This document shows, piece by piece, positions 1,766 to 5,426 of a DNA stretch of 51,144 nucleotides; position 1 is the stretch's first letter, and every line of letters begins with the position of its first letter. Below the pieces are notes generated by a model that worked only from the letters and a program-made list of their open reading frames with translations, had not been told where the DNA came from and ran no database searches. A program made the position numbers and the translations under genes. This stretch comes from Nanobdellota archaeon. Its GTDB lineage: Archaea; Nanobdellota; Nanobdellia; Woesearchaeales; WJIZ01. Location: the NCBI GenBank assembly GCA_023140175.1, contig JAGLMD010000057.1, forward strand, positions 1 to 51,144. The letters are read 5' to 3'.

Positions 1766-2893
1766 ATGGCTAAAATATTAAGATGGTTATGCGAAAAATG
1801 CAATAAGAAGTGGATTTACCCAATTGAGACATGTTTATACTGTAAAGGCAAAGTAAAGAAACAAATAGGAACAAAAACAAAAGTCATAGGCTACACAAAA
1901 GTCAGTATTCCAAGCCCATTACATCCTGTTATTCCTTATAATGTGCTTCTATTAGGGGATGAACATGGAAATAAGATGCCTAAGAAAACAATCAAAGACT
2001 ATAATGTTGGTGATTTATATGAAGATATTCCAGATTCTTCTGAGAATTCTATATCGGCTGTAAAGATAAAATATGATTATTATGAGGCTGTAAAGGAAGC
2101 ACTAGAGCTTATCGGAGATATAATTGTAGATGAAAATAAGAAAATCCTCGTGAAGCCAAATTTAAGCATACCTGGCTACTCTTACCTTGGTATGTGTACA
2201 AACCATAAACTCATGGATGCCCTTATTCAATTACTTCTTGATAAGGGGGCAAAAAAAGAAAACATAACAATAGCAGAGCAGTCCTTCTTTATGCCGCTGG
2301 AAAAAGCAGTAGCTAAAACAGGCACTCCAGAAATAATAAAAAAATATAGCATTAATTACGTAGATATCTCCAAAACAGAGTTTGAAGAAAAGAAAATAAG
2401 AGAATTCACATTTGAGATTTCTAAAATTGTAAATGACTTTGATGTAATCTTGAATGTTCCTGTAATAAAAACAGACATGCTTCTTGGCTTAGATGGCTCT
2501 TTTGAAAATCTTACAAGGTTCCTTTCAAAGAAGAATTTTGATGAGCTTGCAAAAGATCCGCAGAAAGCTGCATTGGCCCTAGCTGTTCTTCCTGGCTTAT
2601 TCCCAAAATTTATAACTATCGGAGATGCATCTATAGGCTTACAGGGAAATGGCCCTGCCCAATATGGAGAACCAGGTTACTATGATATAATATTTGTAGC
2701 AAGAAATCCTGTTGTTCATGACAGGGCAGTTCAGGAAGTTCTTTGCTTGAGAAAATTACCTTATGTAGAACTAGCATCTCAACTCGGCTCAGGCGAATAT
2801 GATATTTCAAAAATAAAATTTATAGGAAATGAATTAGAAGCTTTAAGACGAGACATAAAACAGCCAATTGGCTCAAAACTGATTAAGAAATGA
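1766..2893 (+). CDS. DUF35-like Zn-ribbon/OB-fold thiolase partner fused to a DUF362-like domain
   Basis: N-terminal CEKC...CLYC plus V.GYTKV...H...PY OB-fold pattern; C-terminal ILVKPNL and LNVPVIKT DUF362-like motifs; directly follows thiolase. Confidence 0.7.
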   Translation: MAKILRWLCEKCNKKWIYPIETCLYCKGKVKKQIGTKTKVIGYTKVSIPSPLHPVIPYNVLLLGDEHGNKMPKKTIKDYNVGDLYEDIPDSSENSISAVKIKYDYYEAVKEALELIGDIIVDENKKILVKPNLSIPGYSYLGMCTNHKLMDALIQLLLDKGAKKENITIAEQSFFMPLEKAVAKTGTPEIIKKYSINYVDISKTEFEEKKIREFTFEISKIVNDFDVILNVPVIKTDMLLGLDGSFENLTRFLSKKNFDELAKDPQKAALALAVLPGLFPKFITIGDASIGLQGNGPAQYGEPGYYDIIFVARNPVVHDRAVQEVLCLRKLPYVELASQLGSGEYDISKIKFIGNELEALRRDIKQPIGSKLIKK

Positions 2894-3069
2894 ACTATAT
2901 AAAGATATGTCCAAAATGTGGAAGCACTGATACAAAAATACCTAATGCAGGATTGGATATGAAGATGATCCTGGCAGATAAATGCTTAAATTGCGATTTT
3001 ATCGGTAATTTCCCGGAAGTAGAATCTGACAAAATAGAAGAATTCAAGGATAAAATAAAAAAACAATGA
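2890..3069 (+). CDS. 59-aa CPxCG Zn-ribbon microprotein (not in ORF track)
   Basis: Hand translation [63 protein letters not shown] overlaps with both neighbours. Confidence 0.8.
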   Translation: MNYIKICPKCGSTDTKIPNAGLDMKMILADKCLNCDFIGNFPEVESDKIEEFKDKIKKQ

Positions 3070-4145
3070 CAGAAAAAATATTAATGAAAGGAAATGAAGC
3101 TATGTCTGCAGCAGCTGTAAAAGCAGGCTGTAAATTCTATGCAGGCTATCCTATCACTCCTCAAAATGAAGTTACCCAGTACCTTTCAAGAGAACTGCCT
3201 AAAGTCGGATCTGTATTTATTCAGGCAGAGTCTGAGCTGGCTGCCATCAACATGGTCTTTGGCGCTTCATCTACAGGAGCCAGGGCAATGACCTCTTCAT
3301 CAAGCCCCGGTATCAGTTTAAAGCAAGAAGGGATATCATATATCGCAGCTGCAGAGCTTCCTTGTGTTATTGTGAATGTAATGAGGGGCGGCCCTGGTTT
3401 AGGTAATATTATGGGTTCTCAGGGGGATTATTTTCAGGCTACTAAGGGAGGCGGCCACGGAGATTACAGGTTGATTGTGCTTGCTCCATCTTCAGTACAG
3501 GAAACGTACAACCTGACAATCATGGCTTTTGATTTGGCAGACAAATATCGTAATCCAGTCATGATTCTCACAGATGGTGTTCTTGCTCAGATGGCAGAAG
3601 CAATCGAACTAAAAGAACCCCCATCACACCACAATCTACCAAGAAAAGATTGGGCTTTAACAGGATGCAAAGGAAGAAAACCAAATGTGATAAAGACGCT
3701 TCACCTTTATCCTGCAGATGCCCTTGAAAAAGTGAATATAATGCTTGATAGGAAGTACAAAAAAATAGAAGATGAACTCCAAAAATGCGAAAAGATAAAT
3801 TGTGATGATGCGGATATTGTTGTAATAGCTTATGGCTTGCCTTCAAGAATCGGAAAGTCAGCAATAAAAAAAGCAAGACTAGACGGAATAAAAGCCGGCT
3901 TATTAAGGCCAATTACCCTGTGGCCATTTCCAAAAAAAGAAATTCAGGAAATCTCCAAAAAATGCAAAAAATTTCTTGTTGTTGAAATGAGTAACGGCCA
4001 GATGATAGAGGATGTAAAGCTCGCATTATATGAAAATGGCAATGAAATAGATATATCTTTTCTCGGAAGAGGCGGCGGCTGGTATCCAAAGCCGGAAGAA
4101 GTGTTGAACAAGATAAAAGAAGTTATTGGAAATGGAAAACAATAA
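3066..4145 (+). CDS. vorB: 2-oxoacid:ferredoxin oxidoreductase alpha subunit, Vor (2-ketoisovalerate) type
   Basis: [60 protein letters not shown]. Confidence 0.85.
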
Positions 4146-4872
4146 AGAAAATAAAGAAGCAACATTAAGGCAGGTAAAAATGCATTACTGTCCTGGCTGC
4201 GGCCATACAATAGCCCATAGGATAGTCGCTGATGTAATCGATGAATTAGGAATAAGGGAAAAGACGATAGGCTCTGCACCAGTGGGCTGTGCAGTTTTGT
4301 TGTATGATTATTTCAATTGTGATATTATTGAATGCCCTCATGGCAGAATACCTGCAGTTGCAACAGGAATAAAGAGAACCAACCCAGACAAAATAATTTT
4401 TGTTTATGGCGGCGATGGTGACTTACTCTCAATAGGGATGGCTGAAACAATACATGCTGCAAACCGCGGAGAGAATTTTACTGTTATATTTATTAATAAT
4501 GCAATCTATGGCATGACAGGCGGCCAGATGGCGCCAACAACTTTGATAGGCCAGAAAACAATAACAACCCAGGATGGCAGAGATGCCGACACAACAGGAA
4601 TGCCAATAAGGATATGCGAGATGCTTGCTACTTTGGGAAAGCCAGCTTACATCGAAAGAGTCGCTGTTAATGATGCTCAAAACATTGCAAGAGCAAAAAG
4701 CGCAATTAAAAAAGCATTCAAAAACCAGATAGAAGGAAAGGGGTTTTCTTTTGTTGAAGTATTATCAATGTGCCCGACAAATTGGAAGTTAAGTATAAAA
4801 GATGCATGTAGGTTTGTTAATAATGAAATGGCAGGTTATTTTCCTTTGGGCAAGTTTAGGGATATAGATTAA
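4132..4872 (+). CDS. 2-oxoacid:ferredoxin oxidoreductase beta (TPP-binding) subunit
   Basis: [12 protein letters not shown]...[21 protein letters not shown]; start could be 4126. Confidence 0.88.
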
Positions 4873-4874
4873 AT

Positions 4875-5426
4875 ATGAAAAAAATGGAAGAAAAAATTTT
4901 TATTGCAGGATATGGTGGGCAAGGAGTTGTTCTGGCAGGAAATATACTGGCATATGCAGCTTTAAAAGAAGACAAGAATATACTGGGGATGGTTTCTTAT
5001 GGCGCAGAAGTGCGTGGAGGAGCATCAAACAGCTCTGTAATTATATCAGATGACGAAATTGACTGTCCTATAATCGAAGAAGCAGAAATAGCCATTATTC
5101 TTAGCCAGGAATCCTATGATAAATTCCAGTCAAAAGTAAAGAAAAATGGTTTTTTGTTCTTAAATTCCTCAAAAGTCAACATTGACAAAAAAAGAGAAGA
5201 CATAACAATAGTTGAGATACCCGCAACAAAAATAGCCGCTGAAATGGGTAATGTACGGGTAGCTAATCTGGTACTTGTCGGTGCTTTGATAGAAAAAACA
5301 AAGATTCTTAAGAAAGAAAGCGTCATTTCAGCATTAAACATAATATTTTCAGGTGCCAGAAAGAATTTGGTATACATCAATGAATGTGCTGTTAAAAAAG
5401 GGATAGAACTTGCGGCCAATAATTAA
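4875..5426 (+). CDS. 2-oxoacid:ferredoxin oxidoreductase gamma subunit
   Basis: AGYGGQGV, SYGAEVRGG, ANLVLVGA motifs. Confidence 0.88.
   Translation: MKKMEEKIFIAGYGGQGVVLAGNILAYAALKEDKNILGMVSYGAEVRGGASNSSVIISDDEIDCPIIEEAEIAIILSQESYDKFQSKVKKNGFLFLNSSKVNIDKKREDITIVEIPATKIAAEMGNVRVANLVLVGALIEKTKILKKESVISALNIIFSGARKNLVYINECAVKKGIELAANN

Follow-up and report, generated by a model that had tools for sequence, protein, structure and literature searches.

A predicted VorB-family 2-oxoacid:ferredoxin oxidoreductase as an optional module of an acyl-carrier-protein-free lipid operon in a Woesearchaeales-like archaeon

It is often stated that DPANN archaea have no lipid synthesis of their own and rely on their hosts, and one of the main riddles of early cell evolution is the divide between the ether lipids of archaea and the ester lipids of bacteria. 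A contig of the Nanobdellota archaeon assembly GCA_023140175.1 (JAGLMD010000057.1, positions 1 to 51,144; the whole of this stretch is referred to as the window) raises the question of why the alpha, beta and gamma genes of a 2-oxoacid:ferredoxin oxidoreductase (OFOR) should stand in the middle of an operon of lipid-type genes. An earlier reading of the DNA letters without database searches (the sequence-only reading) had proposed that a Vor-type enzyme provides primers for branched-chain fatty acids at this place. Our analysis partly supports this interpretation as a whole. The OFOR is a conserved, lineage-specific but optional module of the operon, and its probable task is to deliver acyl-CoA to the lipid pathway, with the choice of substrate as the less certain part of the proposal.

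The family assignment of the OFOR rests on NCBIfam model scores. Its alpha subunit passes the VorB model NF005507 (PRK07119), for which the cut-off is 399, with 537.7 bits (537.2 bits in the genome scan) and stays below the cut-off in all 12 other NCBIfam OFOR alpha models, including those for the 2-oxoacid:acceptor alpha subunit of the KorA/OorA group (PRK08659, NF006412; 365.8 bits, cut-off 411), the KorA-type subunit (NF007206; 285.5 bits, cut-off 579), PorA_Arch (NF040682; 112.1 bits, cut-off 550), PFOR (TIGR02176; 29 bits, cut-off 911) and IOR (93.8 bits, cut-off 650.9). NF005507 is a subfamily model, not an equivalog, and its name presumably derives from the purified Methanothermobacter enzyme. 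The label 'Vor-type' chosen by the sequence-only reading is thus apt in this Methanothermobacter-named sense and not in the Thermococcales sense, the Thermococcales Vor alpha model (NF006232) giving 90.5 bits against a cut-off of 646. The alpha subunit contains the YPITP motif, which is invariant in the alpha alignment, while the beta subunit has a CxxC pair, two further cysteines and the GDG...N thiamine-diphosphate (TPP) motif; we take the four cysteines to be the ligands of the proximal [4Fe-4S] cluster. To judge from these sequence features, the product of the three genes is a functional OFOR of the VorB family that lacks a dedicated delta subunit.

The OFOR genes belong to a run of closely packed genes on the plus strand of window positions 1-14388, which reads FabZ, thiolase, DUF35-DUF362 fusion, OFOR, thiolase, FabG, acyl-CoA dehydrogenase (ACAD), EtfBA, two PlsC and GpsA (Table 1). 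They do lie between the two thiolase genes, as had been noted, with the fusion gene standing between thiolase 1 and the OFOR. The coupling by overlaps that had been claimed for them holds for alpha and beta, which share 14 nucleotides (nt) when beta is counted from the ATG at 4132, but not for beta and gamma, which are separated by a 2-nt spacer. Overlaps of 4 nt join the fusion gene to a small open reading frame (ORF) of 59 amino acids (ORF59) and ORF59 to alpha, and 26 nt separate gamma from thiolase 2. The segment originally assigned to the enzyme, 2890..5426, was drawn too wide, as its first 180 bases (2890-3069) make up ORF59, a zinc-ribbon gene that is unrelated to the OFOR and not one of its subunits.

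The conservation of this arrangement was followed with the fusion protein as a marker. A full-length homologue is present in 35 of the 401 sampled genomes of the order, and in a phylum sample of 401 genomes the 12 matches that reach E 1e-40 or better are all from the same order. Inspection of 30 loci and three more yielded 33 operon-bearing loci. The OFOR alpha and beta genes directly follow the fusion gene in 13 of the first 30 and in none of the three further loci, i.e. in 13 of 33 overall, representing seven GTDB families (G000, which is this genome, G001, G268, G262, G137, G015, G124, G055, G043, G080, G166, G342 and G309). Elsewhere the fusion gene is followed by a thiolase (15/33), by FabG (3/33) or by the contig end (1/33), and one further locus has a longer fusion ORF whose neighbour was not seen. 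Among the first 30 loci, an orthologue of thiolase 2 stands directly after the fusion gene without an OFOR in 11 cases, and a thiolase does so in three more. In 28 of the 30 related loci, namely those that reach that far upstream, the conserved operon begins with the FabZ-type gene. The full order from FabZ to GpsA recurs with the OFOR in six relatives (G015, G137, G124, G055, G043 and G342) and without it in two (G349 and G140). Since the insertion at the same slot is found in 12 other genomes from seven families, the arrangement is not due to chance. Moreover, none of the 80 closest loci of the genome collection, nearly all of them bacterial, has thiolase, FabZ or fusion-gene neighbours, and the linkage is therefore special to this lineage; the genes that recurrently flank the bacterial cassettes, a P-loop ATPase (17 loci), DXP synthase (9) and a gene of the acetate/butyrate-kinase family (5), carry little functional signal. 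The sequence-only reading had made its proposal depend on a conserved linkage of vor with the lipid cluster in relatives, and such a linkage does exist. The counts include several genomes flagged as unpublished: G137 (among the 13 with the OFOR, the four with an in-operon delta gene and the six with full synteny), G214 (without the module, with a free-standing cassette) and G318 and G212 (without the module).

The reading frames are largely well preserved in the operon copies, with the four beta cysteines and the GDG...N motif kept in 12 of the 13. In the remaining genome, G080, beta is split into two ORFs and lies about 1 kb from gamma (10032-10822 and 9078-10032 of its locus), and in G055 about 2.1 kb lie between alpha and beta (5123-7254 of its locus). 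These irregularities may be insertions, frameshifts or assembly errors.

The module also appears to have a history distinct from that of its surroundings. All trees considered here are quick trees. In the alpha tree (154 sequences), the archaeal copies share a set of 76 rows with sequences labelled by NCBI as Omnitrophota and Planctomycetota, split from the 78 sequences of the genome collection with an SH-aLRT support of 99, and they form at least three sub-groups; the best 120 of 8000 alpha homologue matches are all metagenomic. The alpha subunit of this genome groups with those of G268 (78-79% identity) and G262 (71%). That of the congener G001, 63% identical, belongs to another clade together with G124, G015, G055, G166 and G309, and joining G001 with G000, G268 and G262 is rejected by the approximately unbiased (AU) test (p 2.45e-46), for a group that was named after the tree had been seen. 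When G001 is compared with window positions 86-7328, the flanking genes are 78-84% identical, but the OFOR genes only 63, 64 and 44%. The fusion proteins of the two congeners, in turn, are sisters (SH-aLRT 92). Because flanking genes and fusion proteins are thus closely related while the alpha subunits belong to different clades, the slot must have been filled or refilled at least twice, which speaks for selection in favour of an OFOR at this place. In the fusion-protein tree, presence and absence of the OFOR require at least four changes, two of them forced by well-supported branches.

The operon that houses the module is not of the bacterial type that its gene names might suggest. In this genome, which is 100% complete, there are 0 matches to the acyl-carrier-protein (ACP) domain PF00550 and 0 to the ketoacyl synthase domain PF00109, while control genomes matched PF00550 in 11 of 14 cases and PF00109 in 14 of 14. 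The sequence-only reading had spoken of a fab/pls cluster; the linkage of the OFOR to the lipid genes is retained in relatives, but the cluster is not a fab cluster, being an archaeal, thiolase/DUF35-based operon without ACP and ketoacyl synthase. FabZ, FabG and GpsA score above their NCBIfam cut-offs. The fusion protein has 375 residues. Its AlphaFold2 model (mean pLDDT 89.7, from a 25-row alignment) places in the N-terminal ~100 residues a domain that Foldseek matches with a probability of 1.00 to the DUF35 subunits of thiolase complexes, namely those of benzoylsuccinyl-CoA thiolase (7pxp_E), ChsH2 (6ok1_B), the archaeal thiolase/HMG-CoA synthase complex (6esq_F) and PhlB (5m3k_B). The Pfam DUF35 models found no match in the fusion protein at E 1 or better, so that the fold is seen by structure search. 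Thiolase 1 is the partner of this DUF35 domain, encoded by the next gene, and the locus thus has the pairing of thiolase and DUF35 genes that characterizes the Sulfolobus-type synthase. The DUF362 part resembles LarA-type racemases (7s91, 9q3j and 2yjg; E 5e-6 to 5e-5), at low TM scores of 0.33-0.41. It has no invariant histidine in the fusion-protein alignment, and a nickel-pincer racemase mechanism therefore seems unlikely for it.

These features make the operon a variant of the thiolase/DUF35 kind of fatty-acid synthase. In Sulfolobus acidocaldarius, a complex of thiolase, DUF35 protein, short-chain dehydrogenase/reductase (SDR) and dehydratase, together with an enoyl-CoA reductase, was shown to make fatty acids (bioRxiv 10.1101/2024.07.05.601840; this and the other papers are cited for the portions of their text that were available). 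The two systems share the ACP-independent, CoA-based mode, the thiolase-DUF35 pair and the FabG-like reductase. However, the DUF35 domain is fused to DUF362 in the window, the dehydratase is of the FabZ type, and the operon runs on into two PlsC genes and GpsA and can carry an OFOR. Moreover, the Sulfolobus system employs an NADPH-dependent medium-chain dehydrogenase/reductase (MDR) as enoyl-CoA reductase. No gene for such an enzyme is found in the operon, where ACAD and EtfBA stand in its place and are proposed to take over this step; the best NCBIfam matches of ACAD and EtfA are reductive acryloyl-CoA reductase models, scored below their cut-offs. The EtfA protein of the window has a cysteine-free N-terminal extension, and that of G137 (11468-12661 of its locus) contains two ferredoxin-type cysteine motifs. 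From its gene content, we read the operon as a pathway that works on CoA thioesters and leads from acyl-CoA to phosphatidic acid, and we infer its direction and products. Two genomes of the same family, G002 and G003, have the operon without the OFOR, lack ACAD and Etf in the cluster and show no PF01855 match anywhere in the genome, so that they must use another enoyl reductase and another source of acetyl-CoA.

In the 78 closest loci, nearly all bacterial, a delta subunit gene (~70 amino acids, with two CxxCxxCxxxC motifs for 2x[4Fe-4S]) is located directly upstream of alpha in 70 cases. The window has no delta gene beside alpha and hence lacks the four-subunit delta-alpha-beta-gamma architecture, its slot being filled by ORF59. 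In its relatives, the slot between fusion gene and alpha holds either a delta ferredoxin gene or nothing, and delta is kept inside the operon in only four of the 13 genomes (G137, G043, G080 and G342). ORF59 was considered as a decayed delta, given that its two CxxC pairs can be aligned by eye with the ferredoxin motifs. However, a profile of 73 delta proteins gave it 5.6 bits, a score equalled by 31 of 1000 shuffles, and in 98 of 400 other order genomes it has homologues (up to 66% identity) that are free small genes outside the operon; in G268, for instance, the homologue lies on a different contig. The candidate was rejected, and ORF59 is, by these comparisons, an unrelated predicted zinc-ribbon gene. 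It belongs to an unnamed family of zinc-ribbon proteins of ~60-110 amino acids that occurs in 99 of the 401 sampled order genomes, with a member in the OFOR delta slot in this genome only. The single ORF of up to 130 amino acids with two ferredoxin motifs in the genome is PorD, which adjoins a PorA-type gene on contig C147. The electron partner of the module might be sought in this PorD, acting in trans from the second OFOR operon, or in a free ferredoxin that docks directly on beta. For Thermoproteus, an enzyme has been produced from the alpha/beta genes of one cluster and the gamma/delta genes of another (PMC13768988).

In the mechanism that we propose, the OFOR would oxidatively decarboxylate 2-oxoacids to acyl-CoA, with transfer of the electrons to ferredoxin, and the neighbouring thiolases would extend the acyl-CoA so made. 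The likeliest substrates would be branched-chain 2-oxoacids, derived from the organism's own Ilv/Leu enzymes or from transamination, and the starters would then be isobutyryl-, isovaleryl- and 2-methylbutyryl-CoA. Condensation by the thiolase/DUF35 pair, reduction by FabG, dehydration by FabZ and enoyl reduction by ACAD/Etf would follow, until the two PlsC enzymes acylate glycerol-3-phosphate made by GpsA. We infer the pathway direction and the substrate, as well as the electron partner and the passing of the acyl-CoA to the thiolases. The organism can, to judge from its genes, make branched 2-oxoacids: a LeuB-type gene, IlvC, IlvD and IlvE are located in the window, and IlvB (761 bits, over the cut-off) and two LeuA-type genes elsewhere in the genome. 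This genome has a PorA-type gene with its own PorD on contig C147, and a separate PorA-type or single-chain PFOR gene is found in 11 of the 13 module-bearing genomes, this one included, so that pyruvate oxidation alone does not account for the module; the exceptions are G262 (79% complete) and G342 (62%). A role in primer supply is plausible because of these separate enzymes and because this genome can make branched 2-oxoacids. Similarly, a special acyl-CoA feed is favoured over general pyruvate oxidation by the separate Por, by the membership of alpha in VorB with failure in the Por and Kor models and by the capacity for branched 2-oxoacid synthesis. We therefore regard it as probable that the OFOR would feed acyl-CoA to the lipid pathway in general. 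That it would supply branched-chain primers in particular is a tentative assignment, held with a little less than even confidence. It is tempting to go one step further and to speculate that some archaea of the order may possess a complete, ACP-free one-operon route from 2-oxoacids to phosphatidic acid and may thus produce ester phospholipids of bacterial type, possibly with branched chains, de novo alongside their archaeal lipid genes, with the OFOR as a plug-in starter module that was captured at least twice at its slot and tends to shed its ferredoxin subunit; this wider picture we consider possible, though with clear reservations.

Several observations weigh against the branched-primer proposal or parts of it. 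The beta subunit passes no NCBIfam beta model (best score 129 bits against 402), and gamma passes none either. Delta is absent from nine of the 13 in-operon copies, including that of this genome, which bears on the electron route. Among the data sets listed with near-identical sequence, there is no RNA data set. IlvD orthologues are found in 12 of the 13 module-bearing genomes and in six of 17 others, but there are only two independent pairs (sign-test p 0.5), and this co-occurrence is not counted as support because it is inseparable from kinship. The remaining observations of this sort are those that lend themselves to other explanations of the module.

The strongest of these explanations leaves the OFOR at the same place in the pathway and changes its substrate, the product then being acetyl-CoA from pyruvate, propionyl-CoA from 2-oxobutyrate, succinyl-CoA from 2-oxoglutarate or arylacetyl-CoA from arylpyruvates. 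Among solved structures, a 2-ketoacid enzyme from P. furiosus (1yd7) and the 2-oxoglutarate enzyme from H. pylori (8ys5) come closest, and JGI calls the same proteins or close homologues 2-oxoglutarate ferredoxin oxidoreductase where NCBI has VorB, both names resting on homology only. In a sequence-similarity network, the cluster of known four-subunit VORs, in which the enzyme of the window is placed by its NCBI name only, also contains HpdDEFG, an enzyme specific for (hydroxy)phenylpyruvate (PMC13285125), and membership in the VOR group therefore does not fix the substrate. A VOR with broad activity is also cited there, and the VOR of a methanogen, for which a reverse role has been proposed, is reported to have 45% activity on phenylpyruvate (PMC13285125). 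In the available text of PMC13285125, PMC13768988 and PMC12307629, substrate-determining residues are not given. G262 and G342, moreover, show no OFOR other than the module, although their incompleteness has to be borne in mind. On the other hand, the failure of alpha in the KorA-type, PorA and IOR models argues against such substrates, as does the presence of a dedicated pyruvate enzyme in 11 of the 13 genomes, so that we think a different substrate somewhat unlikely.

It is also conceivable that there is no functional link at all and that the cassette inserted at an intergenic position that tolerates it, in a mobile operon, and is simply carried along. The OFOR is in fact absent from the slot in 19 of the 33 operons (one further locus ends before the slot), and four genomes with an operon lacking it (G140, G349, G270 and G214) have a VorB-type delta-alpha-beta-gamma cassette elsewhere, with delta intact; these four free-standing archaeal cassettes adjoin CutA1 and Nop56 genes. 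Cluster types even differ within one genus, g136 (G268, G137 and G212), pointing to frequent transfer. However, a passenger would hardly be expected to show the same slot, orientation and operon-tight spacing in 13 genomes of seven families, to have been drawn from two different cassette lineages in congeners and to retain intact reading frames and catalytic residues in 12 of 13 cases, and we consider this explanation improbable.

We are still less inclined to assume that the OFOR works in reverse, consuming reduced ferredoxin for the reductive carboxylation of acyl-CoA, obtained from the neighbouring enzymes or from imported acids, to 2-oxoacids for amino acids. This direction has been proposed for the VOR of M. 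thermoautotrophicum (PMC13285125), and IORs and VORs are mentioned as possible consumers of reduced ferredoxin (PMC13768988), but the genome encodes a complete forward route to branched 2-oxoacids (IlvB, IlvC, IlvD, LeuA-type and LeuB-type enzymes), and the end of the operon, with PlsC, PlsC and GpsA, consumes acyl chains for lipids; the idea is thus very improbable. Least probable of all is a catabolic cluster in which aminotransferase, OFOR, ACAD/Etf, hydratase, dehydrogenase and thiolase degrade isoleucine, other branched-chain amino acids or fatty acids, for while the enzyme set would fit the established chemistry of isoleucine breakdown and beta-oxidation, and the acetate/butyrate-kinase family gene beside five bacterial cassettes would fit a fermentative use in bacteria, the scores of dehydratase and reductase exceed the cut-offs of the biosynthetic FabZ and FabG models, ACAD and Etf best match reductive models, two PlsC genes and GpsA belong to the same operon at a spacing of 1-5 nt, and the cluster contains no phosphotransacylase, kinase or ADP-forming ligase.

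Under the preferred reading, a forward-working OFOR that feeds the lipid pathway, the module can be compared with several known systems. In Bacillus, as is well established, the branched-chain 2-oxoacid dehydrogenase (BCKDH) and FabH have the same task as that proposed here, the conversion of branched 2-oxoacids to acyl-CoA starters for iso/anteiso fatty acids. BCKDH, however, belongs to an unrelated, lipoamide- and NAD-dependent, oxygen-tolerant class whose products enter via FabH onto ACP, whereas the route suggested here would be ferredoxin-linked and operate without ACP and ketoacyl synthase. Methanothermobacter VorABC (2-oxoisovalerate:ferredoxin oxidoreductase) resembles the module in the VorB model that is passed, in the TPP and [4Fe-4S] chemistry and in its archaeal host. 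It is said to comprise a fused beta-gamma subunit and a small ferredoxin subunit, whereas beta and gamma are separate genes here and no ferredoxin subunit is adjacent. The methanogen enzyme, moreover, is proposed to work in reverse, in amino-acid synthesis (PMC13285125), and has no linkage to lipid genes. The four-subunit VORs of Clostridia and Bacteroidales are the closest relatives, with 53-69% alpha identity and the same alpha-beta-gamma order. In gut Bacteroidales, the branched acyl-CoA that goes into branched lipids has been attributed to the aminotransferase BCAT acting together with VOR (PMC11300592), while the role of the clostridial enzyme is given as fermentative (PMC13285125). They differ from the archaeal module in that their products are said to pass to ACP-dependent type II fatty-acid synthesis, in that delta is present in 70 of 78 loci and in that 0 of 80 loci lie beside thiolase or lipid genes. 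HpdDEFG of Clostridium scatologenes, finally, is a four-subunit OFOR that shares a sequence-similarity cluster with the known VORs (PMC13285125), but has a dedicated delta subunit, an aromatic substrate and a gene linkage to phosphotransacylase and kinase.

Several elements of this picture are already in print, among them the bacterial lipid genes of Woesearchaeota, the thiolase/DUF35 synthase and the idea of a VOR as a source of primers. For Woesearchaeota, GpsA and PlsC have been reported (PMC6431249), as have matches to Mss, Ger and ElbD (PMC11868695). The main text of the Sulfolobus study, in the portion available, does not mention DPANN, ferredoxin, PlsC or branched (bioRxiv 10.1101/2024.07.05.601840), and a full-text literature search, limited in coverage and without supplements, found no description of the operon or of an OFOR inside it. 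The interest of the locus thus lies mainly in the host and the context. An OFOR, a thiolase-based, ACP-free synthase and glycerol-3-phosphate acylation would together give a self-contained route to bacterial-type lipids, and the operon would offer a compact set of enzymes for in vitro tests of CoA-based fatty-acid synthesis. Branched alkyl lipids serve as biomarkers whose producers are often not known. If the starters are indeed branched, these archaea could be among the organisms that produce iso/anteiso or other branched alkyl lipids in anoxic sediments.

Table 1. Features of the window, with the model or structural support for each assignment.
Feature	Position	Strand	Support and remarks
FabZ-type 3-hydroxyacyl thioester dehydratase	86..586	+	Pfam FabA-like domain 94.5 bits; NCBIfam FabZ NF000582 132.8 bits (cut-off 113)
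Thiolase 1, archaeal-type	608..1750	+	Pfam Thiolase_C_1 152.9 bits; best NCBIfam thiolase NF004720 328.6 bits (below cut-off 420)
DUF35 (zinc ribbon + OB fold)-DUF362 fusion, 375 aa, operon marker gene	1766..2893	+	Pfam DUF362 80.2 bits; AlphaFold2 and Foldseek
ORF59, 59-aa zinc-ribbon ORF	2890..3069	+	Four Cys in two CxxC pairs; no Pfam/NCBIfam family above cut-off
OFOR alpha, VorB subfamily	3066..4145	+	Pfam POR_N 183.6 bits, PFOR_II 93.2 bits; NCBIfam NF005507
OFOR beta (TPP and [4Fe-4S] site)	4132 (ATG)..4872; alternative start TTG 4126	+	Pfam TPP_enzyme_C 78.5 bits
OFOR gamma	4875..5426	+	Pfam POR (PF01558) 123.5 bits; best NCBIfam NF006323 133.8 bits (below cut-off 235)
Thiolase 2	5453..6580	+	Pfam Thiolase_C_1 145.5 bits
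FabG-type 3-ketoacyl thioester reductase (SDR)	6588..7328	+	Pfam adh_short_C2 220.6 bits; NCBIfam TIGR01830 299.4 bits (cut-off 297.75)
Three small ORFs (90, 124 and 89 aa)	7370-8404	-	No Pfam family
ACAD family, proposed enoyl-CoA reductase	8998..10152	+	Three Pfam ACAD domains; best NCBIfam acryloyl-CoA reductase AcrC 508.3 bits (below cut-off 640)
EtfB, electron-transfer flavoprotein	10153..10932	+	Pfam ETF; best NCBIfam EtfB NF040731 308.4 bits (below cut-off)
EtfA, electron-transfer flavoprotein	10934..12094	+	Pfam ETF_alpha; best NCBIfam AcrA NF042970 375.8 bits (below cut-off)
PlsC-type acyltransferase, first	12097..12756	+	Pfam Acyltransferase 88.2 bits
PlsC-type acyltransferase, second	12758..13399	+	Pfam Acyltransferase 96.1 bits
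GpsA, NAD(P)H-dependent glycerol-3-phosphate dehydrogenase	13405..14388	+	Pfam NAD_Gly3P_dh_N, NAD_Gly3P_dh_C; NCBIfam NF000942 388.9 bits (cut-off 257)
LeuB-type gene, IlvC, IlvD, IlvE	16328-26662
Serpin	21581-22858	-	401 bits
Archaeal signal recognition particle (SRP) RNA	27151-27425	-	Rfam RF01857 132.3 bits
Tryptophan operon, full	32837-39593	+
PQQ/beta-propeller protein, 1479 aa	42133-46572	+

Within the operon, the genes from EtfA through the two PlsC genes to GpsA follow one another at 1-5 nt, and the operon is interrupted by a gap of 1669 nt between FabG and ACAD. It is filled by the three small ORFs on the opposite strand, the first two of which abut; they may represent an inserted cassette, possibly a toxin-antitoxin-like pair. 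In relatives, the gap between FabG and ACAD is smaller or absent.

The window is archaeal and its host belongs to a small-genome, Woesearchaeales-like order of the DPANN type. Apart from the archaeal SRP RNA, it encodes an archaeal-type ribosomal protein S2, a presenilin-type signal-peptide peptidase, a PF01877 protein and HerA, and NCBI names the close alpha homologues as Woesearchaeota or Nanoarchaeota archaea. The host genome comprises 2.07 Mb in 184 contigs, in an order with very many families and genomes of 0.6-2.7 Mb. Near-identical DNA occurs in cold-seep metagenomes, namely in four runs that belong to a single study and may include the source. Matches to archaeal-type lipid genes are spread over contigs C161, C8, C104, C65 and C90 and include a CDP-archaeol synthase match (CarS, 125.7 bits), two UbiA-family matches, a weak PcrB match (25.1 bits) and an Fe-ADH_2 match (40.3 bits), so that archaeal-type and bacterial-type lipid genes may coexist in this genome. 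The serpin, the large beta-propeller protein and the full tryptophan operon, together with the Ilv/Leu genes, show that the biosynthetic capacity of this genome is more complete than is usual in the order.

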